NCBI GenBank assembly: GCA_951406725.2
Contig: OX597814.1
Location: forward strand, 5,270,001-5,334,000
Origin: Octopus vulgaris
Lineage: Eukaryota
DNA: 64,000 nucleotides
Reading direction: 5' to 3'
Under the pieces are notes generated by a model that saw only the letters and a list, made by a program, of their open reading frames with translations, did not search any database and was not told the origin of the DNA. Positions 25,270 through 53,728 of this stretch are shown one piece after another (the first letter of the stretch is position 1; every line of letters starts with the position of its first letter). Position numbers and translations under genes: made by a program.

Positions 25270-26520
25270 GACTGAAAAAGAAAATTTAGCAGTAAAGGCA
25301 CAACGGTAGAGAGCAGCTGAATCGGATGAAACCAGGGCAAAGCGACCGAAACAGGTATCCTGAATATGCACTGAGACCTAGACACGATTCTGTTTCCACT
25401 ACACACGACCAATTGGTTGGTTAGGGTACCTTGAGAGAAGAATATTATACTTCAAAATAATGGTGTTAGATCACAAATTATTGATGCAACACTAAAGAGA
25501 TCTTTTCTTTGCGATCATGTGGAAGTAGTGGAGTTGACAACCAATCTAAGACTTCTTACAGAAGGTCATTCTAATCAAAGAGAGTTTGCTAATTACCTTC
25601 TTGATGTAGGAAATGATAACATTTCTGTTGAACAAAGGCTAGGTTTAATTCAAAATCAAACTACCCAATGACCCTTGCTTTGAGAGGGGTACTCTTTCAG
25701 ATCTATGTGATTTTGTATATGCTGACCTCAAAAATAACTTCACAAACCCTGTGTGGCTTGCAAATAGAACCGTTGTTACTCCACCAAATGAATCAGCACA
25801 ATTTGTGAATGATTTTCTGTTGACCAGGATCCCTGGTGAGCGAAAAATATACAGAAGCTCAGTTGATAATGAAACTCTGTACCTAATTGCATTCATCAAC
25901 AAACTTACACCATCAGGGTTTCCACCACACATTCTCAAACTGAAGGAAAGAAAATGATGCGTAATGCTTCTGAGAAATTTAGATGCTACTAACGGACACT
26001 GCAATGGCACCGTGCTACATCATTGTCAGTTTACATGATCATGTTGTTGAGGCTGAGGTTGTTAACTCTGCTAATCCCAAGAATGCCACATGTATCTCAA
26101 GAAATGGAATTTCCATTTACATGCAAACAATTTCCCGTGAAACCAGCTTTTGCCTTGACGTGCAACAAGGCCCAGGGACAGACTTTTGAACAAATTGGAA
26201 TAGATCTCCTGACACATGGTCAGCTGTATGTTGCATTACACCTAGAGTTCGAAAGAAGCCTAATGTAAAAATATGAGGGAAAAAGAAACAGTATGATTAC
26301 TGACAATTGTGTCTACAAGGAGATACTACTTTAAAGCAAAATATGCTTTTTAGCAAGTTTCAGTATAATGAAAGCAATATTTATTAAGCAAGTGAGAACT
26401 ATTACACCAAGAAATAATTAGACGTAAAATATCATAAAAATGATTAGAATTGGGAATTAAATGGGGAAGTGTTACTGAGTGGCTAGCAGAAAACCGCCCG
26501 GAGGGTGGTCTTTCTGCTAG
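25270..26520 (+). mobile_element. Helitron remnant: PIF1-type helicase pseudogene and 3' terminus
   Basis: LTTNLR, LTPSGFPPHILKLK, LRNLD..NG.CNGT, QFPVKPAFALTCNKAQGQT, HGQLYVAL; terminal hairpin CTAGCAGAAAACCGCCC-GGA-GGGTGGTCTTTCTGCTAG|T. Confidence 0.92.
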
Positions 26521-29459: not shown

Positions 29460-30480
29460 GAGACACATATGAGAGGTTGGTGAGAGCTGTTCAATCCATG
29501 TACAGGGGTGCTGTCAGTAAGTTGAGGGTTGGCAAGAAGTACAGTGAAAAATTCCGGCTAGAAGTAGAGGTTCACCTCAGCCCCCTCTTATTCATCATAG
29601 TCCTCCAAGCAGTAACCAAGGAATTCAAGATAGGCTGCCCCTGGGAGCTCCTCTAAGCTGATGACTTTCCTATAATAGCTGATTGACTATCAGAACTAAA
29701 GAAATTTCAGGCATGGAAGCAAGGTCTAGAATCAAAGGGCCTTAGAGTTGATCTAGAAAAAAAAACAAAGTTTTAGTAAGTAGGAAGGTTGACAAATCAC
29801 GAATTCCTTCAGGTGGGTGGCCCTGCTTGATCTGCAGAAAAGGTGTAGGTAGAAACTCCAAAAGATAAACCCAGTGCAAACTATGGACACATAAGAGGTG
29901 CAGCAATGTAAAAGGTAGGTTAACCGGGAAGATAGTTGTTGTGTGTGGCAGATGTATAGGTACAATAAGCACTAGAAATGTACAGAAAATAAACTCCATC
30001 AAATGTCTGTGAAGGGGACCTAGAAGTAGTTGACAGCTTCTGCTATCTAGGTGAACAAATTAGCAGTGGAAGTGGATGCTCCAAGAGCATAGGTGCAAGA
30101 ATAAGATTAGGTTGGGCAAAGTTCAGAGAGCTTTTACCTTTGTTGGTAATGAAGAGCCTCTCCCTCAGAGTGAAAGGTAGACTGTACGATACCTGTGTGC
30201 AAACAGCCATGCTATACGACAGTGAAACATGGGTTGTGGCTGCAGAGGACATGCAAAGGCTTGAAAGAAATGAAACTAGTCTGCTTCACTGGATGTGCAA
30301 TGTCAGTGTGCATGTATGGCAGAGTGTAAGCATCTGGAGAGAAAAATGGTGCACAAGAGGCATCAGATGTGGTGTGCAAGAGAGAAGACTGCACTGTGGA
30401 GGGGACATGTGGAAGAGATAGACCCAAGATAGACAAGGGACAAGGTGGTGAAGAATGATCCTCAAACATTGGGCCTCATG
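29460..30480 (+). mobile_element. decayed RTE LINE 3' half
   Basis: LSPLLFIIVLQA...GCPWELL; SLRVKGRLYDTCV. Confidence 0.88.
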
Positions 30481-32276
30481 GACCTTTGGGCAATATTCTG
30501 TGCTTAAGAAGACCCATCGAGCCAAGTGAAATTGTAGTTGTGGCTGATGCCAGTGTTACGTAAAAAGTACCATACAAACTTTGGGCCACACAGAGGTGAT
30601 AAGTTTCTGAGACCCCTGGCAATTTACCATGCTTGAGAAGACCCATCAAACCAAGTGAAATCATAGACGATGCTGGTGTCACATAAAAAGCACCCATTTC
30701 ACTCTTGGAGTGGCTGGCATATGGAAAGGCATCCAGCTGTAGAAACTGTGTCAAATCTGACTGGAACCTGGTGCAGCTCTCCAGCCTATCAGTTTCAGTC
30801 AAACCGTCCAACCCATGCCAGCATGGAAAGTGGATGTTAAATGATGATGATGATTTACATTTTCTACTAATAATTCTTTAGAGAGAAATTTCTTGAAATA
30901 AGTGTTTTATTTTGTTATGTCCAATAATGTTGAACCAAGAGTTTTAGAGTTGCCTGACTCTAAAGTATTTACGAGAGGCCATTTAGCTCTGGAAGCCTTC
31001 TTCAACCGAACAACCAAGTTTCTTTCCTTGAACAGGTTCCCCTCTTAGAAATTACTTATCACATGACCATCAGCCTGAGTCATGTGATGTGGTAAGCATG
31101 TAAATTGTGTGTAGCAGACAACACTGCCATATGAGTGATATATACACGAAAGACAAATTATAAGAAAGGTTTTAAAATGCACCATATATACATACACACA
31201 CACACATATATATAGATATCCTTGATAAAAATTTTAAAGACTACATGTTTATTATAGACTTCTGGTCACACATGCGGAATGATATACAGCAACTAGCCTG
31301 AGCATTACCTGCACTATACATACACATGTGTGTCCCAATGAATTTCTTTCGTCATAATTTAAAGAAAAGCATACTTATTTAATGAGATTTTCTATAAAGA
31401 TGCTTCAGATGGTATAAATTCCAATTCTATTGGAATTTGTTGTAAAAAAAAAATCTTTCAAAACAAATATCTGACATGTTGATACATGTCAGATATTTGT
31501 TTATGTCAGCAATTTTTATTTTCATATTAAATTCCAATATTATCGTAATATACAGACTCTTAAAGGTATTTGTGGAAATTTTCATTTAAAAATAACCATT
31601 TTCCCAAAAGTTCTCATCATCATCTTTTAACGTCTGTTTTCCATGCTGGCATGGGTTGGAAGGTTCAGCTGGTGTCTGGGAAGCCAGGAGGCTGTACCAG
31701 GCTCCAGTCTGATTTGGTAGTGATTCTACAGCTGGATGCCCTTCCTAATGCCAACCACTCCGTGAGTGTACTGGGGGCTTCTTACGTACCACTGGCACAG
31801 GGGCCAGAGGAGGCTGGCAACGGCCATGATCGGTTGGTGCTTTTTACGTGCCCAAAGGAACCAAATTTGACTGGTGTGAATTTTCTGAAACTCCTCTCTC
31901 CACTTCCTCAAAAACATTTTTTTCACAACAAATTCCGAACTTACTGGAATCTACACCATCTGAAGCCTGTTTTAATAAATGTTTTAAGAAAAAAAGGAGG
32001 AGGAAGATCACATTTTACTAACCAGTTTCATTGTTTTCAGACTTTGAAAGTTTCAAGTATGTTCTTCAATGTATTTTTAATTCCATGTGGTAGAAGAAAC
32101 AGATGGAAATAATCTTATATAGCCTTGTCACTATATAAAAGGTCAGGGGGAAATGACTACAAGTTAGCATGTATTCTCTTGCTAAATCATGTTTTCAGAA
32201 AGGAATATCATTATTTATATGGAATAAAGTAGTTCTTTTAAGAGAGAGAGAAAAATGTTTACTTGTTTATTTTCAG

Positions 32277-32395
32277 AAGCCACATCATTAAACCCATCCC
32301 TTCCTGGTCCACAACAGAAAGCAACCCCTATGACGTCCAGAGAAAATGCTGGCATTAAAATAAACCTAAGGATTGATTCAATTTCTAATGCATCT
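32277..32395 (+). CDS. macro-PARP (PARP14/15-like) gene: linker and start of macrodomain A
   Basis: tttcag|..ATSLNPSLPGPQQKATPMTSRENAGIKINLRIDSISNAS|gtgagt; in-frame ATG at 32330; upstream exon not identified. Confidence 0.8.
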
Positions 32396-32673
32396 GTGAG
32401 TAAATAGATTCATGTAACTTATTTATATTTAATTGTTATTTCATTTCCAAATGAGGAATCATTAAAGTTAATTAAAACATTTTCTCAATCAAACTCAAAC
32501 ATTTCATTTCCTTCACATCTGATATCTTGAGTATATCTTTTGCTAACTTTAACAACCTCAAACTTACTACAGCCATTCTGTAGAGCCTTCCTTAACAATA
32601 TCAACTGCAACAATGTATCTCTCTTCTCTCCATGGAATGTTCCTTAGCTGTTTACCATTAATTACTTTTCTAG

Positions 32674-32901
32674 GTTGATATCATTGTTAACAGCAGCAAT
32701 AAACAGCTCCAGCTTAATGATGGTTCTATCTCCAAATCTATTCTCAATGCTGCTGGTCCCCAGATGCAAGATGAATGTAACCAGAAATATCCTCAAGGTA
32801 TTTCTACGTTTAAAATAGCCATCACTAAAGGATATAACCTCAACTGTAAGAATGTATTTCATCTGGCATTACCTCTCTGGGGTGAAAATTCTTCTGATTC
32901 A
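32674..32901 (+). CDS. macro-PARP: macrodomain A, exon 2
   Basis: tag|VDIIVNSSNKQLQLNDGSISKSILNAAGPQMQDECNQKYPQGISTFKIAITKGYNLNCKNVFHLALPLWGENSSDS|gtaagt; macrodomain DxIVNxxN and GxxLxCKxVxH motifs; 228 bp. Confidence 0.92.
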
Positions 32902-33480
32902 GTAAGTATCAATCATATGATATTGATTTATTGAAACAGTTAATGTTTGAAGAGAACCTTATGCATGTTGTGTGAGAATCATAAAGCAAATGTCAGCATC
33001 CTGTTTAATATTTGTTCTTCCAAGTTATCATTGGAAGGAAGCAGAAGATATCGATGAACAGGACACTTTTATATATAAATAGAAGGAAAAAAGCCTCATG
33101 GCCTAACAACAGTTATGTGACTGATAAATAAGACTATATTAAAACATATTTCTCTGTTTTACTCTCTGTATTGGTGAGTTTTTCTCTGTCATGGCACGAG
33201 CACTAGAGAGGTTGTCATGTCCTCAACAACACTAAAGACTCCTCTTGGGTCTGCATTGTCTCTCTTCATTCACCAACCATTTTACACGGTGGATTGGGTC
33301 TGTTTTATTGTAGCAGCATCATGAGTGAGGTTGCCTTGTCCCTTGCAGGACTAAAGAGTGATAGGAATGACAGTTGTGAGGAGAGAATATATTTATTACA
33401 ACTAAATGGTTTCTTCCTGTTATAAGAAAATAATTTAATAAAATGTCTATTACCATTTACTAGACAATTACTTTTTTTAG

Positions 33481-33708
33481 ATTCTGGCAAACTTGACTCA
33501 AATAATAACCATTTGTCTGGAAACTGCGGAGAGAATGGGTGCAAAAAGCCTTGCATTTCCTCTATTAGGAGCTGGAAAATTGAGGTACCCCATTGAACAA
33601 CTACCTGGAATTATGTATGAAGCTGTGAAAAACTACTCAAATCAAAATTCAAGCCAGATCAAAGATGTTTACTTTGTTGTTTATCCTCAAGACACAGAAA
33701 TAGTAAAG
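33481..33708 (+). CDS. macro-PARP: macrodomain A, exon 3
   Basis: tag|ILANLTQIITICLETAERMGAKSLAFPLLGAGKLRYP...IKDVYFVVYPQDTEIVK|gttggt; SxAFPxxGxG loop; 228 bp. Confidence 0.92.
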
Positions 33709-34486
33709 GTTGGTTGTTGTATTTGTTGTTTTATGCAGCACAGGGAGGGGGGAGAAGGTGCTGAAAGGAGGTGGGAGGAGGAAAGGTAGTCAGGATGGGG
33801 TTGGGGTAGTATTAATACCAAAATATAATCTTTACACCTTTCCACTGTAACAAAAAGATGAAGGAAATTTCTGTCCCCTGTCGAACTGTTTGTGAACCTT
33901 TTCCTCTTTGAATCTTTTCTCTTTTCTTTGTTATGAAGGACCACGGTCTGAATTGTCAGGTTTCCTCTCATTCTTCCTTACAATGTCAAAATAATTACCT
34001 TGTACTCCTGTTTGTTCCTGAAATAGTTTTGGACAAACAGGATGTAACAAGAAAAACCCCAAATTCAACATTCTTGATAGACATTTTGACTGCAAACACA
34101 AGATCCAACAGTTCTAACCATGATGGTAACTGGACAGGAAAAACGGTGGAACTTCAGCCACATGAAGACACCATTACCACATGTTTAACTGCAATGACAC
34201 CACATCGGTGGCCATGTAAAGTGTGGGAGGTTTTTCTGCTGCATTCACTCTGTTACCATATTGACATAGGCCTCTCATCTCCCAGAAGACAGGAAGGCCA
34301 TGGATGGAATATCTTTGATCTGAGTGACAAAGTAATTTTCCTCATTTCCTTATTACAGAATAGAAATGACTCATTAAATATTTCAAATATTTTGTTTGTC
34401 TTTTGTTAAATTAAATCTATTCTTTTTGCAAAAATGGGAAAATAAAACATAAAAATGATTCTCATTGTTTTTTTCCTTTTTAAAAG

Positions 34487-34541
34487 AAATTTCATGAATA
34501 TCTCCTAAACAGACAGAAAAATGAAGGACTTCTTCCAAGAG
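34487..34541 (+). CDS. macro-PARP: 55-bp exon closing macrodomain A
   Basis: aag|KFHEYLLNRQKNEGLLPR(E)|gtaaac; phase 0-1 bridges the two cassettes in frame. Confidence 0.8.
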
Positions 34542-34606
34542 GTAAACAATTTGTTTGTTAATATTGAATATTATGGTGCCTTGTCATGTCTTTCTCTGTT
34601 AAAAAT

Positions 34607-34902
34607 TAATAATAATAATAATAATAATAATAGTGATAATAATAATAATAACGATCACCATCACCATCACCATCATCATCATCATCATTATTATTATTAT
34701 TACTATTATTATTATTAACGTAGCAAGCTGGTATTTCGTCTGCTGCTACATTCTGAGTTCAAATTCAGCCGAGGTCGATTTTGCCTTTCATCTTTTCAGG
34801 GTCAATAAATTAAGTACCAGGTGAACGCTGGGGCTGATGTAATCGACTCACCCATTCCCCAACATTGCTGCAAAATTTGAAACTATTATTATTATTATTA
34901 TG

Positions 34903-34980
<78 letters not shown>
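34607..34980. repeat. compound trinucleotide microsatellites (AAT/CAC/CAT/TAT; TAT/TAG) around a SINE
   Basis: direct reading. Confidence 0.9.
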
Positions 34981-34981
<1 letters not shown>

Positions 34982-36296
34982 TGTTGATCTGGCAGAATCG
35001 TTAGCACACTTGATGAAATGCTTAATGGTATTTTACCAATTGCTACATTCTGAGTTCAAATTCTGCCAAGGTCAGCTTTGTCCTTCATCCTTTCAGGGTC
35101 AATAAATTAAGTACCAGTGAAACACTGGGGTCAATGAAATACTCCCCCAAAATTTCAGGCTTTGTGCCTTTAGTAGAAAGGGTTATTATTCTTATATTTT
35201 ATAAAGATTGACATAACCTCTCATTAAGGACCAGGTGATGCATTGTATTCTTGAGCAAAACCCTTCACTTCATGTTGCTCCAGTCCACTCAGCTGACAAA
35301 ACTGGACCCTATTCCAGCCTGGATGTTTCCAGTTTGGGGTTTTTGTTGTTTCCTCATTTGATATCTGAACCCTGCTTCTCCATCCTCGAGTCATGCATCC
35401 GCTTTCTATATCTTCTTACGGGGCTTCCCTCCATCATGAACAGGTTAACTCAAAAAAATAACACCCTGACAGCTGTATTCAATGCCTGAGTCCATTTTGT
35501 TCTAGCAGCTGTATAATGAAGACTGGGCCTGTGCTGCTTAGCCACGGGGCACCTTCTGGGTGACAGTCTCTCACCTGTAGTTTTGTCCTCGTTTATGCTG
35601 TTCTTTGTATTCTTTTATTCATTACTCATGCAGAAGAAAGTGTTGATAAGGTGTCACAACCCCCAGTGTTTTTATCAAGACACCATCTCTAGTGGGATCT
35701 TTTAAAAAAAGACTCAAATGGACCCCTTCAACCCTCAAGAGTTTAAAAGAGCTATCCTGCACTGGACACCAGCCTAGTATGCAGATAGGAGAAGTGTTAA
35801 ACATGAAGCCTGGCAGAGTAAGGTGTATATAAGAGGTGGGGAGGGGGAGATTAGTGAAAGCAGAGAAAGGGATGATCGATGGAAGGTTGTATGGACGGAG
35901 ATGATGATGCAAGTGAGGCAACTGGTATTAGCGAAAGGGTGGTGGTGGTGGTGGTGGTGATGAATATGTGCAGATTCTGCTGTCAAATGGTTACAGCAGC
36001 AAAGTAGGACCGTAGTTAGAAGAGTAATGGAGGGATGGGTGTTAGGAAGATGAGATGTGGTGAAGGGGATGCTTCACAGGGACAGATGTGGGTGTAGGGC
36101 CCAGCATGGGCATGAATAACCACAATGCATTTAGGACCTCACTTTTGCTATGACAGATGTGTGTTTTTGTATCATTTTGTTCAACTTGGACCAGGATGGA
36201 ATATGGACATTAAACCATGATGGGATAATGAGAATAATTGGTCTATATATATATGTATATATATGTATATATATGTGTGTGTGTATATATATATAC

Positions 36297-36327
<31 letters not shown>

Positions 36328-36443
36328 CATTTGTGTGTGTGTATATATATAATGTCTATATTTAAGAAGAGATATGTGTATATATGTATATATATTTATG
36401 TGTCTGTATATATATACAGACACAGATATTTGTTTGTTTTCAG

Positions 36444-36580
36444 AAACCCCATCACCAAACCCATCCCTTCCTGATCCGCAACAGAAAGCAGCCCCTATGA
36501 CACCCAGAACTAATGTGACGTCCAGAGAAAATGCTGGCATTAAAATAAACCTAATGATTGATTCAATTTCTAATGTATCT
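36444..36580 (+). CDS. macro-PARP: linker and start of macrodomain B
   Basis: ttcag|(E)TPSPNPSLPDPQQKAAPMTPRTNVTSRENAGIKINLMIDSISNVS|gtgagt; paralog of 32277-32395 with an 18-bp in-frame insertion. Confidence 0.88.
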
Positions 36581-36861
36581 GTGAGTAAATAGATTCATGT
36601 AACTTATTTATATTTAATTGTTATTTCATTTCCAAATGAGGAATCATTAAAGTTAATTAAAACATTTTCTCAATCAAACTCAAACATTTTATTTCCTTCA
36701 CATCTGATATCTTGAGTACATCTTTTGCTAACTTTAACAACCTCAAACTTACTACAGCCATTCTGTAGAGCCTTTCTTAACAACAATATCAACTGCAACA
36801 ATGTATCTCTCTTCTCTCCACGGAATGTTCCTTAGCTGTTTAACATAAATTACTTTTTTAG

Positions 36862-37089
36862 GTTGATGTCATCGTTAACAGCAGCAATAAACAGCTCCAG
36901 CTTAATGATGGTTCTATCTCCAAATCTATTCTCAATGCTGCTGGTCCCCAGATGCAAGATGAATGTAACCAGAAATATCCTCAAGGTATTTCTACGTTTA
37001 AAATAGCCATCACTAAAGGATATAACCTCAACTGTAAGAATGTATTTCATCTGGCATTACCTCCCTGGGATGAAAATTCCTCTGATTCA
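36862..37089 (+). CDS. macro-PARP: macrodomain B, exon 2
   Basis: 228-bp copy of 32674-32901 (VDVIVNSSN...LPPWDENSSDS), GT-AG intact. Confidence 0.92.
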
Positions 37090-37669
37090 GTAAGTATCAA
37101 TCATATGATATTGATTTATTGAAACAGTTAATGTTTGAAGAGAACCTTATGCATGTTGTGTGAGAATCATAAAGCAAATGACAGCATCCTGTTTAATATT
37201 TGTTCTTCCAAGTTATCATTGGAAGGAAGCAGAAGATATCGATGAACAGGACACTTTTATATATAAATAGAAGGGAAAAAGCCTCATGGCCTAACAACAG
37301 TAATGCGACTGATAAATAAGACTATATTAAAACATATTTCTCTGTTTTACTCTCTGTATTGGTGAGTTTTTCTCTGTCATGGCACGAGCACTAGAGAGGT
37401 TGTCATGTCCTCAACAACACTAAAGACTCCGCTTGGGTCTGCATTGTCTCTCTTCATTCACCAATCATTTTACATGGTGGATTGGGTCTGTTTTATTGTA
37501 GCAGCAACATGAGTGAGCTTGCCTTGTCCCTTGCAGGACTAAAGAGTGATAGGAATGACAGTTGTGAGGAGAGAATATATTTATTACAACTAAATGGTTT
37601 CTTCCTGTAATAAGAAAATAATTTAATAAAATGTCTATTACCATTTACTAGACACTTATTTTCTTTTAG

Positions 37670-37897
37670 ATTCTGGCAAACTTGTCTCAAATAATAACCA
37701 TTTGTCTGGAAACTGCAGAGAGAATGGGTGCAAAAAGCCTTGCACTTCCCATATTAGGAGCTGGAAAATTGAGGTACCCCATTGAACAACTACCTGGAAT
37801 TATGTATGAAGCCGTGAAAAACTACTCAAATCAAAATTCAAGCCAGATCAAAGATGTTTACTTTGTTGTTTATCCTCAAGACACAGAAATAGTAAAG
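37670..37897 (+). CDS. macro-PARP: macrodomain B, exon 3
   Basis: 228-bp copy of 33481-33708 (ILANLSQ...SLALPILGAGKLRYP...TEIVK). Confidence 0.92.
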
Positions 37898-39299
37898 GTT
37901 GGTTGATGTTTTTTTTGTTAGTTGTTTGATGTTGATTTTCTTGGAATTTACCAAAGTGATATTCCACAATCATCATCATCATCAGGCCCAGTCTGATCTG
38001 GAAGTGTTTCTACGGCTGGATGCCCTTCCTAACGCCAACCACTCCGTGAGTGTAGTGAGTGCTTTTTACGTGCCACCTGCACAGGTGCCAGCCGGAGCTG
38101 GGAAACGGCTACGGATGGATGGTGCTTTTTACGTGCCACCGGCACGGGGGCCAGGCAAAGCTGGCAACGGCCACGATCGGATGGTGTTTTTTATGTGCCA
38201 CCGGCACGGGAGCCAGTTGGGGCGGCGCTGGCAATGGCCACGATATGATGGTTCACTTACTTGTCACCGGCACTGGTATCACAGCTGCAATTTCCATTGA
38301 TGTTGATCGACTTCGATTTTGGTTCTGATATCTGATTTGATTTGGTTTGATTTTGATTTTGATTTGGATTTTCACTTGCCTCAACGGGTCTTCACAAGTG
38401 GAGTTTTGTGTCCCAAGAAGGAAATGTATGTATAAGTCGACTGGCTACATACGAGGTAGAGGCCACGGGTTATGGTCTCACTAGTCTTGCCGGGTCTTCT
38501 CACGCACAGCATACTTCCATAGGTCTTGGTCTCTAGACATTTTCTTGGTGAGACCTAAAGTTCGAAAGAAAAGAAATAGAAATGATCCTCATAATCATTT
38601 ACAGCCCTTGTTCCATTTTGTAATGGGTGCAACATTTTGACTGGCTCCAATGAGCCACAAGGGTTTATTGAACCCCAGTGTCTGCTTTGGCATGGTTTCT
38701 ATGGCTGGATGCCATTCCTAGTGCCAACCACTTCACAGCATGTCCTGGGTACCTTTCTTCGTGCTACCTTTAATGCTGTTCATCATATTTTGTTGTGCTT
38801 TATCCTTTCATTATACCATTTCCCATCACCAAATTCTTGCTTCTGAAATATTCCATTGTAACATTTGAAGCTAAGAATGTTTTGCTTGTTGTTGTTGTTG
38901 TTGTTGTATCCAAAACCAACTCTACAAGAATTGGTAACACTGAAGGACTTCTTTGCAGTTTGGCTGCTGATTTTATTGTTGTTATTTAACCCTGAGTCAG
39001 TTCTGATTCAGCAGATTTGAAGTCAGTGATGTCTGTCTTCCTTTCACTCTTTTCCTCCTCCTCTTCCAAGCTGCCACAATCATGACACATTTAAACAATG
39101 CCACACCAATAATCTCTGTCTGCCTCCTCCCCCCCTTTCACTGTGTTTCTTGTTCTGTGCCTTTTCCAATAACATCAATGTAACTGAGTGGAACTCAAAC
39201 CTCCTGTCGGAGTGGGGAAATCTCCAAAATATAAAATCTGATACGGTCGAGAGTTCAACAAAGTTCAACAAACCCTACATCTAGCAGATATGGGTGGAA

Positions 39300-39300
39300 T

Positions 39301-39341
<41 letters not shown>

Positions 39342-41150
39342 TGTTTAATGTCTGCTTTCCATGCTGGCATGGGTTGGACGGTTCCACTGAGGACTGGCAA
39401 GCCTGAAGGCTGCACCAGGCTCCAACCTGATCTGGCAAGGTTTCTATAGCTGGATGCCTTTCCTAATGCCAGCCACTTCGAGAGTGTAGTGGGTGCTTTT
39501 TATGTACCACCGGCATGGGGGCCAGTCATGTGTCACTGGCAACAACCATCCTCAAATGGTGCTTTTTACGTGCCACCGGCACAGATGCCAGTCAGGCAGT
39601 ACTGGCATCGTCCACCACAATGATTCAACGGGTCTCCTCAAGTGCAGTTTATTACCCAATGATTGATGGGTACTCTTAAATGGGCTGATTATATTACACT
39701 GGCATAGGCTATGGTCTCACTTGGCTTGCCAGGTCTTCTCAAGTACAGCATATCTCCAAAGGTCTTGGTTGCTTGTCATCACCTCCGTGAGTTCCAAAAT
39801 TTCAAGGTCGTTCTTCACCACCTCATTCCTGGTCTTCCTGGGTTTACCTCTTCCACAGGTTCCCTCCATTGTTAGGGTGTGACACTTTTTCATACATCTG
39901 TCTTCATTCATACATAACATATGACCATACCAGTGCGGTCATCTCTCTTGCACACCACATCTGATGCTTCTTATGTCTAACTTTTCTCTCAGGGTGCTTA
40001 CACTCTGTTGTGTATCCACACTGACATTACACATCCAGTGGAGCATACTAGCTTCATTCGTGGCCAGCTTACACATGTCCTCAGCTGTCACAGTCATGTT
40101 TCACTGCCATGTAGCATGGCTGTTCATACACATGCGTCATGCAGTCTACATTTCAGTCTGAGTGAGAGGCCTTTCTTACCAGCAGAGGTAGGAGCTCTCT
40201 GCACTTTGCCCAGGCTGTTCTTATTCTAGCAGTTAAGCATCCACCCCCAATGCTGACTTGGTCACCTAGGTAACAGAAGCTATCAACTACTTGTAGTTTT
40301 TCCCCCTGGCATGTGACAGATGTTATTCTCTGCATATTTTCAGTGTTTATTGCCCCAGTGCATCTGCCACACACAAAAACTATCTTCCCTCTACTTCTAC
40401 CCGTAATTCTTCACTATACTCATTGCTGACCCTTATCTTACTGACAGCATCCCTGTACATGGCTTTCACAGCTCTCACTAACCACTTATCTATCCCTAGT
40501 TTCCACATTGACCACTAGATAAGTGATCAGGGGACCCTGTCGAAGGCTTTCTCCATGTCAATGAAAGTCAGGTACAGAGGTTTATCTTTGGCTAGGTATT
40601 TCTCCTGCAGCTGTCTTACAAGAAATATAGCATTAGTGGTGCTTTTCCCCGGCACAAACCCAAACTGTGTCTTGTCTAAACTGACTCTCTCCCTGATTAG
40701 TTAGGCTATGACCCTCTCCATGACTTTCATCACCTGATCCAACAACTTGATACCTCTGTAATTATTTGTATCTAAAGCATCACCTTTACCTTTGTAGCAG
40801 CTGACTATTGTGCTGCTACACCAGTCATTGAGTATGACACCTTCATGGATCACCTGATTGACTATACAGGTGACTAGGCTATAGTCAACACCACCAGATA
40901 TTTTAAGCATCCCTGCGGTGATTTCTGATGGGCCAGGGACTTTCCCTGTCTTCATACCCTTAATTGCTTTATCTACCAATGTACTATCAATTTGGATAGC
41001 TAGTCCCTCTGTTGGGTCGACATTTGGCAGACTCTCTTTCTCCCATTCATTCTCTTCATTTGGCAACCTTTCATAGTGGTGTCTCCAAGTCTCTCTCTTT
41101 GCAGCCTCATTAAATGCAAGTGAGCCATCATCCATGCGGACACATTTCTT
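39300..41150 (-). mobile_element. decayed RTE LINE with 3' (GAT)n tail
   Basis: KGMKTGKVPGPS, KGKGDALDTNNYRGIKLL, GRGKPRKT. Confidence 0.9.
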
Positions 41151-41151
41151 T

Positions 41152-42250
41152 TCCATAAATAATGTGATTTTTTTCCGTTGCATGAACTGAAAGTCGGAGG
41201 GGGATGGGATAAACCACTTGCATCACCTTGCTATAAAAGCAGGTAGTAATTTTACCTTTTAATTATTCTTAATGCAAGTGTTGAAGAGTGCAGTTCAATT
41301 TTAACAGTCATTTTTTCAAAGCTACAATGGAAGTTACAAAGGATCATATTTGGCATATTTTGCTTAATGAGTTCAAGAAAGGAAGCAACGCAATGGAATG
41401 TGCGAGGAATATTAATGCAGTAAATGGGGATCGGACAATAAGTGTAAACCAGTGTCAATGGTGGTTCCACAAATTCTCAGTCGGAAACTACAGCCTAGAA
41501 GACAACCCTCATTCTGGAAGATCTGTAGAGCTCTATGAGGATGTCCTGCAAAGCCTGGTGGAACAAAATCCCATCATAACTGTTAAGGAACTAACAGAGA
41601 AGCTTGGATTTGGTCATTCAACCATTCATCGACACCTGCATGCCATCAGACAACTCAGCAAACAGCAAATTGTGTCAATGATTTCCTCACAAACTTTCTG
41701 AGTCTAATCATGCACTGAGAGTGAAGGTGTGCTCTTCTTTGCTGTCACATCTCATGAATGAATCTTTTTTGGACTGAATAGCGACTGGTGACAAGAAATG
41801 GGTTCTCTATAAAAATGTCAAGTACTGAAGACAGTGGGTAGGGAAAGGAGAAAGACCGACACCCCAGGAGAAAAAAGGTCTTCACCCATATAAGGTGCTG
41901 TTATCAGTTTGGTGAGATATGAAAGGTTTAGTCCACTTTGAACTTTTAAAGCCAAACTAAACGATAACGAAGGAGATCTACAGTGAGAAGCTTGAGCAGT
42001 TTAAGTCAGCACTAGAAGAACAACGACCATCTTTGGTTTCAAGACGAAAGGTGTTCTTCCATCAGGATAATGTTTGGCCACATACAGCAAGAATGACATT
42101 CCAAAGGCTGGAGCAGTTTGAATGGGAAACGATGCCCCACCAACCATATTCGTCAGACACTGTTCCATCTGATTATCATTTATTCTGCAGTCTTCAAAGA
42201 TGATTTGGATGTAAAAAATATGAATTCTAGAGACGAGGTCAGAACAGCAA
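41152..42250 (+). mobile_element. mariner (DD34D) transposase pseudogene, truncated
   Basis: HTH region HILLNEFKKG...CQWWF.KF..G.YSLED.PHSGR; downstream TGDKKWVLY, HQDN.WPH, PYSSD..PSDYHLF with stops. Confidence 0.92.
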
Positions 42251-43387
42251 TGAAAAAACAGGGTTTGTGCATAGAAGCTGTGATACAACGGAAGTAAACG
42301 GCATTGTTTTAAACAGTATGAAAGCAATGCGTGAGAGATAATACATGTGTGTGTGTGTGTGCATGTGTGTGTGTGTGTGTGTGTATGGGAGAGAGAGAGA
42401 GGCAGAGAGAAAAATAAGAGAGATTCATGGTAACAAATAGAGAGAAAGAATTTTGTAGTTGAGTTATCATTGAAAATTATATTTTTATATTATTATTTAT
42501 GGATGACCCTTCATTGAGATGCAGATTTTGAATATCAAATTCGTTTTTTCTTGAGGATATATCGTTTCAGGGCTAACCACACATACAGAACCATAGACAC
42601 TCATATCTATGTAATGGATGTACAATATCTGTGTGTACAGACTAATGTAAATGTCTTGTCTATATATATATACAATATCGGTATATATATATTTTTATAG
42701 TAATGTAAACATCATGTCTCTATAAACTATATTGTCTATGCATAGATGGGTGTAAGCAAGACGAGTGTATATAAACTGAGTGTCATATAAACACTTTCTG
42801 TATACAATATGTGTTGGGGACAGAAAAAGATTGTTTGGCTGGACCCGTTCCTTTTCTTCTTTCTCCTTTTATCTATACCTACAGTGTTGGGTACACATCT
42901 GCAGATATAATCTGTAGGACAGTTTATATAGCATTGAAGTAAAGCACTGTTGACATACCAGTAATTCACTGGAATTTACTCATAGCCAGTCTGTTTCAAC
43001 AGAAATGTTCTTCCTTTGTTTTAATCAGTTTTGAAAATAATGAGGAATTAAGTAAAATCGGTTTGTCATTATTAAACTGGTGTTTGGGCATAACATGGAA
43101 TCTTGATACCAAATTCAATTCCATGAATAATTTTCTACAGTCACTTAAACAAGCAAATTTCATTTCTTTTTATTCTGTAAGTAAAAATTCCTCCCCAAAC
43201 AACAGAATATTCAAAAGCCTGTTCCTCATAGGAAGTTATTCTATGATACAATAAATGGAAATATTAATTTAAAACAATATTTGTGATAGAAACAATGAAT
43301 TAAAACATTGCATTGTAATTAAGAGAAATTAATTAGGAAATTATTTTTTCATTGAGTGATGATAAATTATTTGCTTACTTCTAACAG

Positions 43388-43442
43388 AAATTTAAAGAAT
43401 ATTTCCAAGAAATTTCAACAGATGGTTCAACTGCATCATCAG
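43388..43442 (+). CDS. macro-PARP: 55-bp exon closing macrodomain B
   Basis: ctaacag|KFKEYFQEISTDGSTASS(E)|gtaaat; same length and phase and the same KFxEY start as 34487-34541. Confidence 0.8.
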
Positions 43443-43740
43443 GTAAATTCTTTCTGTTTACTTATATTAAATATTATGCTAGTGTCACGTAACTACCACC
43501 TGTGCTGGTGTCACATAAATGGCACCCGTGCCAGTGGCACATAGAAAGCACCCATTACACTCTTGGAGTGGTTGGTGCTGGGAAGGGCCTTGAAATGTAG
43601 AAAGCATGTCAAATCAGATGGAACCTGGTGCAGCCCCCACCAGCTTACCAGTTCCAAGTCGACCAGTCCAATCCATGCCAGCATGGAAAGCAGATGCTAA
43701 ATGATGATGATGATGATGATTTAGAAAATGAGATGACAAA

Positions 43741-43824
43741 GGAACTTACAGCTGTTTCTTCTATAAGATGCAATGGACTCTTAGCTGAGTGCTGAACGGC
43801 ACCTTGTAGTTTCATCAGAGCCTC
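43741..43824 (-). ncRNA. degenerate hammerhead-ribozyme-like motif beside the Penelope fragments
   Basis: gaggct-CTGATGA-(53-nt stem II)-GAAAC-agct-GTA-agttcc. Confidence 0.55.
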
Positions 43825-43989
43825 AAATAAGAAGGGCAGCTTATTTGGGAGAAGAGTTATAATTATGCATCACCTTACTGTCTCCCAGAACTGCCTGACT
43901 GGCCCTGATGCCGGTTACACCAGCAGCCCCAGCACCAACAGTGCAAGTCCCAACCACAGCGGTGGCAGCGATGCCAACACCAACAAACA

Positions 43990-46080
43990 CACCACTGTCA
44001 ACACCTGACCATGGAGATACATCAGCTCTACCACTAATTTTCAAACAACACCTCTCCAACCACAGATCCTCCTCCAGGATACCGGAAAGGGGATTCATCA
44101 CATCATTAGCGAGCCATGTATGGCAGCTAATGGACTGTGGGATTCCATACACAATATCATGGAGAATCCTAGAAAATCCAAGCCCATGCATAAAGGGGAC
44201 CAAGCATTGTAAATTATGTATAGCGGAACAGGCAAGGATCCTAAAGGACACCCTCGACCCAGGGAACATGCTAAACACCTAATCTGATTTAGGATGAATC
44301 AGTAAAAATATATATGATAGAATGCAACCTACTATTAGAAAGAAGCTAAACATAAACTTATGATCCGGCACAGGCAAGGTAATTATCTGGTTCCAAATGT
44401 GTCAAAGCAAAAACACCGCATTCCTACAATTTTACATCAACAACTACTACACCTCCATATCATCAATCCTCCTTAAGGATGCCCTGACTCTAGCTAAAAA
44501 CCTAACCAACATAATCTCCTTAGAAATTGATGTAATTCTATCTACCAGGCAGACTTTCATATCCTTTGATAATAAGCTTTGGTCCCGTGCTAACCTCAAT
44601 ACTAATAGAAACAACTTCTTTGATATAACTATGGGCTCATCCGACTCTGCTCAGGTAATGGATCTAGTCAGACTGTACCTCCTTCAACAGCTCCACACAC
44701 AATTCACCCACATCAAAAGCGGTTTATGTAGAGATGGACAAAATCTGCATTAGAAAGAACAAGAAAACTTTAACCTATCTATTTCTTTTGAAAACTCTTA
44801 CAAGACAGCAAACTTTCTAGATGTTACATTGGATTTAACCCTTTAGTGTTCGCATTATTCTCCCAAAATTAATGCTTTTTCATCCACATTGCCTTGAACT
44901 AATCAGGCATTATCTTGTAGCTTTGAGATTTTGATGAGGTAGCTGTTAATTTTTAAAACGATATTGTAGGGTTGGTGTGAGAGACCAGATCTGGCCATTT
45001 TGAGCATAAAACAGGCAGAATACTTTTGGCCGGATATGGCCGGTTTAAATGCTAAAGAGTTAAACTCTTCTCATATCATAAACCCAATCAATACCTTAAG
45101 TACATCAACATGGAATCTAGCCACCATAAATCTACTTTCAAGAGTATAATCAAAGGCATATCCATCAGAATATCTGATCTATTTGCCACTGAGGAAATCT
45201 TAAATAACTACGCCTCTTACTACAACCAACCTCTAGCTGGGCTTCTCCAAGGAGATTAGATTTATAGCCAATGCTAGACTTCAAGAACACCTCTCTAAAT
45301 TTAACTCTAGATGAGCATGCCCACATATTGGATACTCAAACCCTCACACAATATTTAGACAATCTCGCCTGCCTAGCACCCACACACATAAGACTCGATC
45401 TAAGAATATTAACACGAAACCCTCCAACTCTCCTCTAACATACACAAGAAATTACACCTCCCCAAATTTGCCTAATAAAAGTAGCGGGAGATCTATTCTC
45501 TGGTACACACCTCCATTCGCTTTAAATGTTACGGGCCTTGCTAGAGCTTTCTTTAAAATAGTAGGTTCTAATTTCCTACGTAACCACAGATATCATTCTA
45601 TCTTTAACAGATCCACTTTAAAATTATCCTATTCCTCTACACCAAATAGCGAATCTATTATGAGCTCATCTAACAAGCGTAAACTTAGCTCTTACCATCT
45701 AAATACATGAAACCCTATCCTAGACCTACACAACGAGAACACTAACACTGATCGCAATAATATAAGAAATGCACCTGGCCCTAACGCTTTGAATGGCTTA
45801 AACATAGATAATATAATCCTTGCTTTGGAGGAAAATGGGTGCACAGTTGAAACCAACACTAATACTAATAGGAATACCGATACTAACAATACTAACTATA
45901 TTATAACCACTACAACTACTAATACCTCTACCATAACTAATAATAACACCAGCAATAAGACAACCACCAATGGCAATATTACCATTACCGAAAATAATAC
46001 TATTACTAACACTCTTACCATAAACGCTACTACTAATAGTTACAATAATAACACTAACACCATCACCACCACTACCAATG

Positions 46081-46125
<45 letters not shown>

Positions 46126-46760
46126 GTAATAATAATAACTATGATAGCTATAATGGCAGTAATAATAATAATGGTAATGATGGCAGTGATATTGACAGAA
46201 ATAACAGCAATGATAACAACAATATCATGAACGAATCACCTAATACAAACTAAGTGTTTAACTTGTCTGCTAGAAGTAGTACTATTTCATCCCTCTCTCC
46301 AACTAACCATCACAGAATAGATAACTGCAGCTTCAGATCTGGGACCGAGTGCCCACTGCAAGCCCAATGCAAAACATTCAACATGGTATACCAATGCACT
46401 GTCCACAACATATTAGATAACTCCAATAATTACTATATTGGATCAAACAAAGATATTCTGCACATTGAAACTCATTTAAATATAAAGAGCAATTCCACAT
46501 CACAAACCAGTCCCATACACCATCTGATTAATAGAAAAATACAATATAGACTTTCCTGGGCTATAATAGACTCTGACATCCCATGTCAGGACCTGCACTC
46601 CATTTGTGGACTCTGCTTAAAAGAAGCCCTCAAAATTTGAACCCATAACTCACCACAATTGCTTAACAAACACAACGAAGCCTTCACAATATGTAAATGT
46701 AAATTCTTCTGCACTTTTAAATTCTTCCATAAATCCAAATGTAAACTTACCCCCCTCCAT
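43990..46760 (+). mobile_element. Penelope-like element fragments (GIY-YIG end, RT, linker, GIY-YIG) with nested TTAA MITE (~44835-45063) and low-complexity tract
   Basis: FDITMGSSDSAQV.DLV.LY.L (PLE RT), ILWYTPPF...FNRSTLKLSYS, CPLQAQC...VYQC....YYIGS, ISW.I....P.......C.LC..E. Confidence 0.88.
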
Positions 46761-47539
46761 GGTCGTTAATACACACCCTTGTATATCTCTTTAGTACCTT
46801 AAAAGATAACTGTTAAATCTTTAATTTATTTTGAAATCCCCTAATATTTAGTTGTAACTCTTATTTCTAAATGATTTAACATTCAGCTGGTTTCTCCACT
46901 CATGACTACCTACACACCCATACCTCCATAGCTAAAAATATTTCTACAGCTACTGACCATAGCCATAAAATGGGACACAAACACTTACTACTAGAAATAA
47001 TTCTGTATATAAAACAACCATGTAGTGCTCAGAATATGAACTATATGAAGAATATAGGCATCGGTAGAAGACACAAAATTCAGGTAATCGGTAAACAGTT
47101 TTCCTTTATAACGTCGGAGTACTTAAGGCAAACCTCATAAAACTGTAAAAAATGTATATGCGTGTACAAAATTACATAAAAATACACACATGCATAAAAG
47201 TATACATATAAATACATATGAACGTATAAAAACGTACATGAATCTATAAGGAAAATATAAGATGGTATGCGAGTGCCTGAACTTGGTACATCCGTGTTAG
47301 AAACGGAAAGGAAGAGAGTTATGGAGGCATGGAGAATATGTGACAATATACATAATCAATTAAAAGATATTAAAAGTGTTCCAGAGCAGAGATAAAGTCT
47401 AATACTCATTCTACGATTGTTTGGGGAGTATGTTACTCGGGGTGGATAAAGCGTTCCTGTCCATCTTCCATATAAGCAGTTCCTTCATCAGGGAACACGT
47501 AACGGACTTAGAATCCTCCACATTTGGAATAGAGAAAAT

Positions 47540-48195
47540 AGAAAAAATACAGCGGATATGGTGAAATCAATTACCAATGTCTTGTTAAGGAATTCTATTG
47601 ATGAACAATCTCGCCAAAGATATAGAAGTTCTCACAGACCCTTTAGTTATAATTATAGAAATAATGCAGTGGTATATAGACAAACTAACAAAAGTACCTC
47701 TAGAAAAAGGGAAATCTTATGGTTTACCCCGTTTTTCTCTCTTCAAATTAGAAACCTGTCCCCAAATTTTTTTCCAACATTATTGAAAAATAACTCTCCT
47801 AAGGATCATAAATATCCCCCTATTTTGAACAGATCTACTTTAAAATTATCTTATTCATCAACACCAAATTTGGGCTCTATTATTACAGGTAATAACAAAT
47901 ATAAGCTTAAAAATAATCCATAGGAAATAGACCCTAATGAACCTAGTTTAGGGAATATTAATACTGAGATGGCAATAGGAAATAGAAACAATAAGCTGAA
48001 AGCTATAAATAAAATCTGCAGTTGTCGTTCCTGTGTAGGTTGCCCTAAAAAGGTTCCTGTTTAACGAAAAATGTATATGAATGTGAATCTAAGAACATCT
48101 ATATAGGAAGTACAGTTAATTTTAAGACGAGATATCGGGGACATGTAAATTCTTTTATAAATCCCCAAACTGTGAACTCAGCTGCACTATCTGGT
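47540..48195 (+). mobile_element. second Penelope-like fragment
   Basis: REILWFTPFFS...LNRSTLKLSYSSTPNLGSII followed by a decayed GIY-YIG (YIGST.NFKTRYRGH). Confidence 0.8.
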
Positions 48196-48324
48196 TTGCC
48201 AGTCCCCAGTCAAACCGTCCAACACAGAATGGAAAGCTAACATTAAATGATGATAGTGGTGGTGTGGTGGTGATATATGTATGCATGCATGAATGTGTGT
48301 GTGTATGTATGTACGTACGTATGA

Positions 48325-49600
48325 GCAACAGGTTTATCTAGCCAGGGCAGAAGCAGAAAGGAAGAGGGCTGCCACTGTCTTACAGCATGAAGATCAGAGA
48401 CTTGAGGTGTTCCAGATTGCGAGACAGTGTGTCAGAGAGAATCAAGATGTTGTGAGAGAAAAGTTTGTATGTGTGGATAATGGTATGCTGGCACTCAATG
48501 ACTCCGAAAAGAAAGACGTGTGGAAGTACTACTATGAAAGGCTGTTAAATGTGGGGAATGAATTAAAGAAAGGGAATCTTCCCCCATAAGGATATGAAGA
48601 CAGGGAGAGCCCACCCTGGTCCATCAGGAGTCACTACTGATATGCTTAAAATATCTGGCAGATTCTGTAACAACTAGAAAATAAATTCTAGTTGTGGAAG
48701 AGAAACCTGGAATCTAAGGGTGATTTAAGGTTAACTTAGCAAAGGGCCTTAAGGTTAACTTAAGTAAACAAAGAGGATCCTTCTCCCATCAGGTAAATGG
48801 TCCTGCTCAGTATATAGGAAAGGTGTAGGCAGGAATTCTATACAGTGTACACTGCAAGCTATGGACACACAAGAGGTGCAGTGGAGTAACAAGGAAGATT
48901 ATCAGAGAAGGTAGTGTTTGTCTGTGGAAGATGCGTGGGAACCATAAAAATTAGAGATACTAAGGAAATTGATTTTCTCAAATGCCCTGGAGGCTCTTCA
49001 GAGGCAGTGGATAATTTCTGCTACTTAGGGGATCTAATTAGCTGTGGGGGGAGGATGCATGGAAAGTGTAATTGCTAGAATAAGAATAGGATGGAGAAAA
49101 TTCAGAAACCAAAGATCTCTAGTGCATTGAGAGAAAAGTTGGGCATAAGAGGAATTAGATGCAGCGTGCAAGAGAGAAGAGTGTACTGGTTTGGTGATGT
49201 GATGCAAATGGGTGAGGACAGTTGCATAAAGAAGTATCCATCATTTAAAGTGGATGGAGCTCGTGAAAGAGGGAGACCCAGGAATATATGGGACAAAGTA
49301 TTGGGGCTCAGTCTCAAGACACTGAGCCTTATGAAGGAGACAAGAAAGAACCGAGATATCTGGCAGCTTGCTGTACTCCAGAAGACCCATCCACCACAGC
49401 AGAGTTGATACTGGTGCTGGTGCCATTTCAAAAGGCACCAACTACACTCTGTAAAGTGGTTGGCATTAAGAAGGGCTTCCTGCTGTGGAAACCATGCCAG
49501 AGCAGACAATGGGAGCTGGTGTGGCCTTATCAGCTCCTGTCAAACTCTCCAAGACATGCCAACATGGCAAACAAACTTTCAATGACGATGATGATGATAT
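48325..49600 (+). mobile_element. deleted RTE LINE
   Basis: VFQIARQCVRENQDV; LREKLGIRGIRC...RGRPR.IW. Confidence 0.85.
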
Positions 49601-49932
49601 ACAGGTCACCAGCAGCAGCATATTCTTTGACCATTTGTTTTCCATGCTGGCATGGCTCGGATGCTTGGATACAATCTGGCACAACCAACAACTGTATTCT
49701 GCTCTAAAGTCAGCTTTGGTAGGTGTTTCCAGGACACCACCACCACTATTTCAATACTCCCACTACTACTGCTCTGTTTAATATTTTCATATTCCTTGTC
49801 TAAACCCAAAAATTAGTCAAAATATTCCTGTTTTTATTTTGTTTTTTGTTTTTTTTTTCAAAATTTTCAACAGGAAAAAGGTTCATAATATTTTTGTTGT
49901 TCTGAAATATTTGATTTCTGTTTGGCCTCTAG

Positions 49933-50066
49933 AGTCGGTCCCTGATACATGGTCACCAATGGGAGACAAGGAATTATTTAAAATTGTTCCAGTCACAAAT
50001 GGACCAGAATATGACGACATCCAGGCCACTTTCCGTCGGAATTTGCCTTCCTATCGTATAATCAAA
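49933..50066 (+). CDS. macro-PARP: start of PARP catalytic domain
   Basis: tag|(E)SVPDTWSPMGDKELFKIVPVTNGPEYDDIQATFRRNLPSYRIIK|gtttgt; PxxWxxM...EYxxxxxxF pattern of PARP14/15. Confidence 0.9.
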
Positions 50067-50455
50067 GTTTGTATTTTTACTTCTGTTTATAAACAATATT
50101 TGATGGTTTATTGTTAAAACAAAATGTTAAGAGACATTTTGTTTGTATGAAAGATTTAAATCTCATTGTATGAACCTATTTTGGGATGGTTCTATGTGTT
50201 TTTGGATATTCACAAGAAATCTTTGCTCAACAAAAATACCTCTGCTTTAACTTCTTGCATTGAATTGTAAATGCAACACCATTTTGCAGCTAAACTATTA
50301 TGCCTTACCAAAATTTACAGCCGAATCAAAATTGGTATCAAATAAAAAAGAAAAAAAAAAGCAGATAGGGTTGGGGTTTTTCACCACAAACGTTATTTCC
50401 TTGTCAAAGAAGTGAACTGATTGTTTTTTCATAAATGTATTTTCCTTTTCTACAG

Positions 50456-50633
50456 ATTGAGAGAATTCAAAATAAAACATTGTACCATGGATACCAAGTA
50501 TTGAAAAGAAAGTTTGAGGTAGAAAATCCAAACATTACAAATGAAGTTGATGGCCTTTGGCATGGTACTACTGAAAGAGCTGTTAAGGGAATAAATGAAT
50601 CAGGATTCAACCGTAGCTATTGTGGTAAAAATG
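50456..50633 (+). CDS. macro-PARP: catalytic domain exon containing HGT
   Basis: cag|IERIQNKTLYHGY...LWHGTTERAVKGINESGFNRSYCGKN(A)|gtaagt. Confidence 0.95.
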
Positions 50634-51708
50634 GTAAGTATATTATAATCAACATCATCATCATCATCATCATCTACCCACCCTTCCTATTGTCCTGAGC
50701 TGGACAGACTGTCACTGTCCACATTGATTGCTGTTTAGAATCCTTTCTCACTCAGAGAGGACAGAGGCTGTCATGTTGCTCACACATTCCATGTTTGGCA
50801 TCGTTTCTACTGCCAGGTCCCCTTCCTAACATCTTCTGCTCTAGAGTAAAGCAGGTGTATTTTATTATTGTGGAACCAACACTTTTACTTATTTTTCTTG
50901 CTGGATTGGGAGGAAGGGGTTTCCCATCCCCTTTTCAGACCCTTCTAAACTGTGGAGATTGGTTAGCATTAATGCTTCTCTTTAATCTTTGTAAATCAAC
51001 AATTGCAAGAAAGGCATTAGAAGGGGTGTTGTTGATTGCTAGATTTACATATCAGGTTGCTCTTGTGCACCACTGGTACCATGTAATCCAGTACAACCTG
51101 TTGCATGGTCGGGTGGTTGGTGACTTAACACCACCGAGCATTGCTTAGTTGGGAGGGTGACTGTTGGACACCCTGCAGGACCAAAATAAGACCCATTAAA
51201 GGGCAAAGGAACTGCTCTCGTAGTCAATGGTCATTCAAGACTGTGTGTTAAGGTAGCATGATACTCTTTAGCTTTGGTTAGCAACCTTCCTTGAGATGGT
51301 GTCTAAATAAAAATACTTTAGGAGTAGATGGTTTACCTGTCGCCCAGTTTTGCACTCGTACCTAGCTTATTGGTTTGAAAAGAGCACCGCAACCAGATAT
51401 TAGAAGAGTGTGAGTTCGATCCTCATGGCTGGCTGCTGGCAAATTGTTTTGCTCTTAAAAGGATTTTATACTTTATATATATATATATAACAGGAAGGTT
51501 TACGAAAATAAACAAAAGACGAAGGTAGGTGAAGTACAAACAAACAAATGTATTAGTATAGCTCTCAGGAATAGAAATAGAAAAAGTCTTTTACATTTCG
51601 AGCCTACGCTCTTCGACAGAAAGATACACAGAAAAAAAAACAAGGAGAGAAAAAAAATGTGTGTAGGAGCTAACGATCTAGGAGTTCTAATCGTTGAATA
51701 AAAAATCT

Positions 51709-51745
<37 letters not shown>

Positions 51746-51864
51746 TCATACTGTTCTCCAGTATTTGGGTTGGACGTTGAATAAAAACCAGGCTCCAGTC
51801 TTATCTTTTTCTACAGCTTGTTCTACAATACATTTATATTGCTTTGAAAACAAACTATATTATG

Positions 51865-51904
<40 letters not shown>

Positions 51905-53459: not shown

Positions 53460-53728
53460 CCACAGCATTTGGTGAAGGTGTTTATTTTGCCAGAGACATC
53501 CAATATTCTGCAAGTGATGCCTATTCTACTCCTGACCATCACGGAACAAAGAGAATATACCAATGCAGTGTTCTTGCGGGAAGAGTGATGCAAGGACAGC
53601 GTGGATTAAAAGTTTTACAGGAATCTTACAATTCTGCTGTTGATAATATTCAAACACCCAATATTTATGTTATTTTCCATGACTTTCAGGCATATCCTAA
53701 TTATTTGATTACATTCTCTAATCAGTGA
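53460..53728 (+). CDS. macro-PARP: last exon of catalytic domain
   Basis: tag|(A)TAFGEGVYFARD...YNSAVDNIQTPNIYVIFHDFQAYPNYLITFSNQ*; candidate AATAAA at 53848-53853. Confidence 0.95.

Follow-up and report, generated by a model that had tools for sequence, protein, structure and literature searches.

In the 64,000-nucleotide stretch of Octopus vulgaris DNA analysed here (the window), a PARP14-family gene encodes two macro2-type macro domains and an ADP-ribosyltransferase (ART) domain, and its second macro cassette (B) was probably overwritten by DNA of the type of the first (A) through gene conversion after an old duplication. The gene has 11 exons between 32330 and 53728, and their exact translation is isoform P0039 with 601 amino acids. 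Pfam finds two Macro domains and one PARP domain in it, which places the protein in the macro-PARPs (PARP9/14/15 group), defined by at least two macro domains plus a PARP catalytic domain. Cassette exon 3 was a 100% match to the O. vulgaris protein P0008, labelled PARP14-like. The repeat unit comprises four exons, the 55-bp one corresponding by alignment to the final helix of the macro2 domain of PARP14. The sister genes used for comparison lie on contig C1: G2 at 5.40-5.52 Mb (plus strand), G3 at 5.72-5.78 Mb (minus strand) and G4 at 5.66-5.69 Mb (minus strand). The features of the window gene are the following.

29469..32276, +, 5' flank of A type, with 96% identity to G2 and G3; the homology begins within a dispersed-repeat fragment
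32277..32395, +, cassette A exon 1 (linker plus first strand), with the annotated ATG at 32330 and an 18-bp deletion in common with G2-A
32396..32673, +, cassette A intron 1, alike family-wide (mean pairwise difference p 0.041, 1081 pairs)
32674..32901, +, cassette A exon 2, coding for the N-terminal half of the macro2-type domain; no difference from B across 32686-32875
32902..33480, +, cassette A intron 2, 580-bp type; core 97-100% identical in the 37 full-length matches among 40 scored
33481..33708, +, cassette A exon 3, coding for the C-terminal half of the macro2-type domain, with the GAGKLRYP loop
34487..34541, +, 55-bp exon of A type (KFHEYLLNRQ), in a region with 97-98% identity to the sisters G2 and G3
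36444..36580, +, cassette B exon 1, extended by DTDICLFS when the alternative acceptor at 36420 is used
36862..37089, +, cassette B exon 2, a 228-bp macro exon
37090..37669, +, cassette B intron 2, A-type of 580 bp; the positional sisters G2-B, G3-B and G4-B have the 820-bp type
37670..37897, +, cassette B exon 3, with the A-type allele at 11 of 12 diagnostic sites
43388..43442, +, 55-bp exon of B type (KFKEYFQEIS), in a 251-bp region with 100% identity to G2-B and G4-B
49933..50066, +, ART (PARP catalytic) exon 1; translation matches P0039
50456..50633, +, ART exon 2, with the HGT motif
53460..53728, +, ART exon 3, with GVYFA, NIYVIF and the stop

The segment added by the alternative acceptor (36420-36443) is found in annotated isoforms and in one RNA contig.

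Origin of the second cassette

The two cassettes (A, 32277-33708; B, 36444-37897) were compared by a BLAST search of the window against itself, which joined 32260-33730 to 36427-37919 in a single 1493-bp match at 95.6%. The preliminary description had counted 11 differences, six of them non-synonymous, in the 456 bases of the two 228-bp exon pairs. This count was exact; the pairs differ by 5 and 6 bases, and the amino acid changes are I/V, L/P, G/D, T/S, F/L and L/I. The near-identity that had been claimed for the whole three-exon cassettes applies to exons 2 and 3 and to both introns: over the about 277 bp of intron 1 there are 7 substitutions besides one 3-bp indel, and over the 579 bp of intron 2 there are 12 besides one 1-bp indel (19 differences in about 856 bases combined). 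It does not extend to exon 1, which is more diverged, its length of about 120 bp containing 9 substitutions and an indel of 18 bp. The likeness was said to start at the first splice acceptor, but starts about 17 bp before it; its strict end 8 bp past the last donor was placed correctly and is followed by about 20 bp of patchy similarity. The 55-bp exons are indeed strongly diverged, with 25 of 55 bases different, and for the preceding introns the best match was only E 0.017.

From the genome, 47 cassettes were extracted, while four further places were seen and left out. Among the 1081 pairs (median 50 differences), A and B are the 9th closest, and seven of the eight closer pairs have both flanks in common, as plain duplicates would; the members of the eighth are separated by 197 Mb and their flanks are unrelated. 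Within the 33 cassettes that have this intron type, each of A and B has the other as its closest copy, with 5 differences in exon 2 (next 10-13) and 6 in exon 3 (next 9). For the introns the rank falls to between 2nd and 5th, because these are 96-100% alike across the family. Intron 1 of B is closer to G2-C and G2-A (2-3 differences) than to A (7). The 190-bp tract that is identical in A and B (32686-32875) carries an allele seen in 0 of 31 other cassettes compared. Consecutive cassettes with both flanks unrelated differ by 34-63 bases elsewhere, whereas A and B differ by 11 and are, with a spacing of 4.2 kb, the most closely spaced of such pairs. Two simple explanations were rejected: a tandem duplication, as nothing downstream of B corresponds to the spacer that follows A, and an intron homogenisation specific to A and B, as these are not nearest in the introns and the introns are alike throughout the family. 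What is peculiar to the window gene is that its exons are homogenised as well as its introns.

The flanks of the cassettes group by position. The region of the A-type 55-bp exon goes with G2 and G3, that of the B-type with G2-B and G4-B, and the spacer before B matches the spacers of the sister B cassettes. For exons 2 and 3, quartets of A and B with the A and B cassettes of one sister gene gave sites grouping by gene over sites grouping by position of 13:0 (G2), 8:0 (G3) and 22:0 (G4). A tract that groups by gene between flanks that group by position is the pattern of interlocus gene conversion. The twelve diagnostic sites in exon 3 are those that separate G2-B, G3-B and G4-B from G2-A and G3-A, and at the one where B lacks the A-type allele, A and B both carry the B allele. 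The 580-bp and 820-bp types of intron 2 can be aligned only in three end patches of 40-44 bp. A second case of A-type intron 2 inside B-type flanks is G2-C.

In the O. sinensis protein P0013 the second domain is of the B type and almost the same as that of G2-B, and the TFK and EQLPGI motifs occur in the first domain only. The B type is therefore older than the species split. Since the flanks of B are B-type, its core is A-type and P0013 keeps the B type, the direction was A-type over B, and the proposal of an old duplication with a later re-homogenised cassette is supported by the B-type flanks around the A-type core. The split of O. vulgaris and O. sinensis is put at about 2.5 million years ago (10.1101/2023.05.16.540928). 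The overwrite may have followed it. With the introns of B nearer to G2 cassettes and its exons nearer to A, we infer that the overwrite went in more than one step.

The isoleucine at residue 25 of cassette A occurs in no other of the 47 cassettes. The one-cassette O. sinensis model P0021 has an A-like start with this Ile25 and a B-type 55-bp exon with the ART domain at its end. It is possibly a contracted version, judged by these sequence features; in its ART domain the last exon matches the window gene and G3 equally well, and the middle exon is nearer to G3.

The tract ends had been described as pinned to the exons. They do lie near exons, and a swap of intron 2 needs pairing on both of its sides, but they are not strictly exonic. 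Most cassettes have common sequence well past the exon-3 donor, the A line turns into an unrelated stretch about 25 bp after that donor, and many 5' flanks become microsatellites about 20 bp before the first acceptor. By sequence, the tract ends are limits of homology near exons, set by an unrelated stretch or a microsatellite.

The nearest competing explanation, which we consider unlikely, is a chimera formed by successive unequal crossovers among G2, G3 and G4, with the core of B brought in by that route and not converted from A. The gene is a mosaic, with a 5' flank and A-type 55-bp exon close to G2 and G3 and a segment at 43019-54051 collinear with G4. The A-type intron 2 of G2-C in B-type flanks and the single cassette of P0021 between an A start and a B-type end are also as expected from it. 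However, the chimera calls for a pair of crossovers flanking the core within about 1.5 kb, with a product the same as that of conversion, and the allele of the 190-bp tract that A and B alone carry among the cassettes compared also speaks against it.

The cassette family and alternative readings

Exon 2 and exon 3 each gave 51 candidates in the genome, of which 40 were scored and found 87-100% identical, and the last ART exon gave 17 matches. The family occupies three regions of C1, with cassettes on C29 too, and amounts to about 17 genes with about 50 cassettes of macro2 type that are nearly identical; an annotated protein has 1-5 of them. The window gene thus belongs, as had been suspected, to a macro-PARP family of variable cassette number. 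Many O. sinensis domains match the positional O. vulgaris copies to within 0-3 residues per exon, and the backbone of a quick protein tree of the macro units was mostly unresolved.

The introns are more uniform than the exons. In 33 cassettes, diversity was 0.033 in the introns vs 0.126 at 24 fourfold sites, and intron diversity drops with distance from the exon from 0.063 to 0.017-0.028. Non-synonymous differences per site (pN) in exon 2 exceed the intron 1 difference (mean 4.1%) in 98.5% of the 1081 pairs; for exon 2, pN was 0.109 vs 0.086 for synonymous differences (pS). The most variable residues are 33, 38, 44, 55, 90 and 131, some of them in or beside both pocket loops in the macro2 alignment. 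Incompatible site pairs made up 31%, while 100 simulations on one tree gave a mean of 12% and a maximum of 19%. Sites near each other were more compatible than expected by chance (permutation p 0.0005), and neighbouring cassette segments were almost uncorrelated in their distances (correlations 0.00-0.33). This is a strong signal of recombination, and the history differs from one part of the cassette to another.

These numbers bear on a recent expansion along one tree, with purifying selection on the introns or fast evolution of the exons and no conversion. In its favour, copies of the intron 2 core spread across 200 Mb and a second contig show 97-100% identity (40 scored), some flank patches are equally uniform, and a contig from organism D differs from intron 1 at 2 of 210 bases. 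Its probability is nevertheless low, below that of the chimera: the observed incompatibility exceeds every simulation, the silent exon sites are about 4 times more diverse than the introns, and the mixed flanks and core of B are left unexplained. Constraint on the introns was looked for as structured RNA, and Rfam gave no family beyond one match at E 0.54.

Near-identical repeats are prone to assembly artefacts. A duplicated haplotype or a polishing step that made the copies alike is nonetheless highly improbable here, even though a long read spanning both cassettes was not seen (the eight sequencing runs were examined as contigs), for the flanks of A and B are unrelated and each match different sister genes, and run X20 has both exon-3 versions and the A-to-B junction. 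Runs X12, X17, X19 and X20 are presumed to be RNA. In X20, which is spliced, a single contig runs without mismatch from the A-type 55-bp exon (59 bases) into B exon 1 (77 bases), and contigs with A exon 3 exactly, or with the four alleles of B, were present at similar depth. A contig of presumed RNA leading from the A-side exon into B makes a mis-assembly unlikely. The private allele of A at 33562 was seen in X20 only, and its lack in other contigs does not count against it. In X1, a 71-base piece with the B exon-3 alleles was found with 0 mismatches. The DNA runs had intron pieces of 210-361 bases as single contigs, with a depth far above that of copy-specific pieces (depth here is not copy number); such long common intron contigs in other runs likewise speak against an artefact.

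Several observations weigh against conversion of B as read here. In the G2 quartet, exon 1 leans towards grouping by position, 4:3. For both macro exons together pN is below pS (0.108 < 0.132), and the amino acid excess is found in exon 2 only. The ART exons likewise have pN > pS, therefore diversification is not special to the macro domains. Some flank patches match the introns in uniformity, with 96-99% identity in sets of 9-15 copies. The comparison across species consists of O. sinensis proteins and one O. bimaculoides protein, and intron constraint could act. The A-to-B junction comes from one run and is perhaps not independent of the annotation, several B-private intron alleles were absent from the contigs of four DNA runs (contigs drop rare variants), and no 5' untranslated region or promoter of the window gene was located.

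With conversion of B by A-type DNA, we favour the following course. Ectopic conversion among the about 50 cassettes would keep the introns uniform, and selection would normally preserve the exon variants. Tracts would stop where insertions or microsatellites break the homology, and an unrelated intron 2 could be exchanged only by pairing on both its sides. In the window gene the exons would have been overwritten too, in more than one step, possibly aided by the 4.2-kb spacing and the loss of the 5' half of the gene. The exon homogenisation would fit relaxed selection after the truncation, selection for a doubled variant, or proximity alone.

Other members of the family showed features of their own. 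Loop 2 (P0008 residues 128-132) has a one-codon deletion in 15 of 46 cassettes, with GAEMKYP for GAGxLxYP, and neither A nor B is among them. The intron-2 core (32945-33380) had 281 first-look candidates in the genome and is probably in part a dispersed repeat. The cassettes at G000:C1:9235637 and G000:C1:206896648 are 197 Mb apart and have 10 exon differences and unrelated flanks on both sides, making them a candidate for long-range conversion. At G000:C1:8901438, exon 3 is frameshifted with 227 bp, and in L082 the last ART exon is 1 bp short. G4 (P0041, G000:C1:5658000-5690000) is a second gene with two macro domains and ART and without macro1; it has its own first exons, and its domains match O. 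sinensis P0019 to within 0-1 residues per exon.

Domain architecture and known systems

In a sequence search against structures, the ART domain was nearest to PARP15 and PARP14 and the macro domains to PARP14 macro2, which was the top match (E 6e-27; macro3 construct, E 7e-11), where the entries of the PDB are presumably assigned to macro2 and macro3 correctly. A mono-ADP-ribosyltransferase has the triad H-Y-L/I without the catalytic glutamate, and HGT, GVYFA and NIYVIF of the window gene align to the corresponding motifs of PARP15. The two macro domains are 95% alike and do not form the macro2 plus macro3 pair of PARP15; no macro3-type domain was seen in the window gene.

The full architecture of PARP14 is likewise absent, as no RRM or macro1 exon was found in the window or the preceding 30 kb. 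Of 16 macro1-exon matches genome-wide, none is upstream of the window gene. The paralog P0012 has an RRM region and macro1 by Pfam, and upstream of G2 two copies of the second macro1 exon lie at G000:C1:5399186 and 5417860. For WWE-region exons before the ART domain, the P0020 region matches G2 and G3 and not the window; the label WWE is our own reading, as Pfam made no such call. An upstream search for a short first coding exon found none. The start of the 5' flank at 29469 is about 1 kb downstream of the position corresponding to the last macro1 exon in G2, and is likely the 5' truncation point of the window gene. The gene thus resembles PARP15, and appears to be a 5'-truncated partial copy that would work like PARP15 without being PARP15.

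ADP-ribosylhydrolase macro domains have Asn/Ser and Gly flanking loop 1, and a hydrophobic and an aromatic residue in loop 2 (PMC10221186). The window gene has NSSN...DGS in loop 1, and its loop 2, GAGKL, is without the aromatic residue of GVYG in macro1. By the residues of PMC10221186, the sequences of the window macro domains are those of non-hydrolases. Their loop glycines align to PARP14 macro2, and the domains are predicted to be readers of ADP-ribose. The loss of the adenine-binding Asp need not prevent this, since human macro2, which binds ADP-ribose, has no Asp at the aligned position either. The protein would then bind ADP-ribosylated targets by two near-identical non-hydrolase domains and add mono-ADP-ribose, as PARP15 does. 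A model of P0039 by AlphaFold with 14 sequences had a mean predicted local distance difference test score (pLDDT) of 48 and was not used.

PARP14 and the mammalian macro-PARPs (PMC4038475, PMC10221186) are like the octopus gene in their macro domains with a PARP14/15-type ART, in gene duplication and in variable macro domains, and by this likeness an immune role may be considered (PMC4038475). The octopus family differs in its numbers of genes and of near-identical macro2-type cassettes. The term gene conversion is absent from the main text of PMC4038475. Mammalian PARP15 is similar as a short form with two non-hydrolase macro domains and ART, no macro1 or WWE, and apparently an origin as a partial PARP14 copy, but the octopus domains are both macro2-type, and the octopus form is presumably of independent origin. 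PARP15-like proteins are stated in PMC10221186 to exist only in mammals, and an example from another group would mean that an immune-gene architecture had evolved convergently.

The mechanism of conversion itself is already known from the primate red/green opsins (PMC3924837), whose introns are homogenised and exons kept apart in a 'peak of divergence', and where conversion halts at insertions and is faster at short distance. The octopus pattern fits conversion of the opsin type with selection on exons, as an analogy. It differs in being a network of many exon cassettes over several clusters and not one gene pair, and the exon peak has collapsed in the A/B pair.

An octopus macro-PARP expansion or the family pattern was not found in the literature outside subscription journals, and in the preprint on the O. 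vulgaris genome 'PARP' is absent from the main text. The window offers a directional and roughly datable conversion event in an invertebrate macro-PARP family, for which the sister genes serve as built-in controls. Should the exon variants alter binding, the octopus would have a diversified ADP-ribose-sensing repertoire. We only tentatively extend this to an innate repertoire of about 50 readers shuffled by conversion, with independent PARP15-like reader-writer genes, where the window gene would be young and have received one variant in both slots after the O. vulgaris/O. sinensis split while cassettes are still gained and lost.

Elsewhere in the window, a 134-bp unit is repeated at 20763-21347 in 4.3 copies that are 94% alike. 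Decayed stretches at about 25400-26300, 41300-42250 and 44000-48150 resemble what we take to be a Helitron helicase, a mariner transposase and retroelement remnants.

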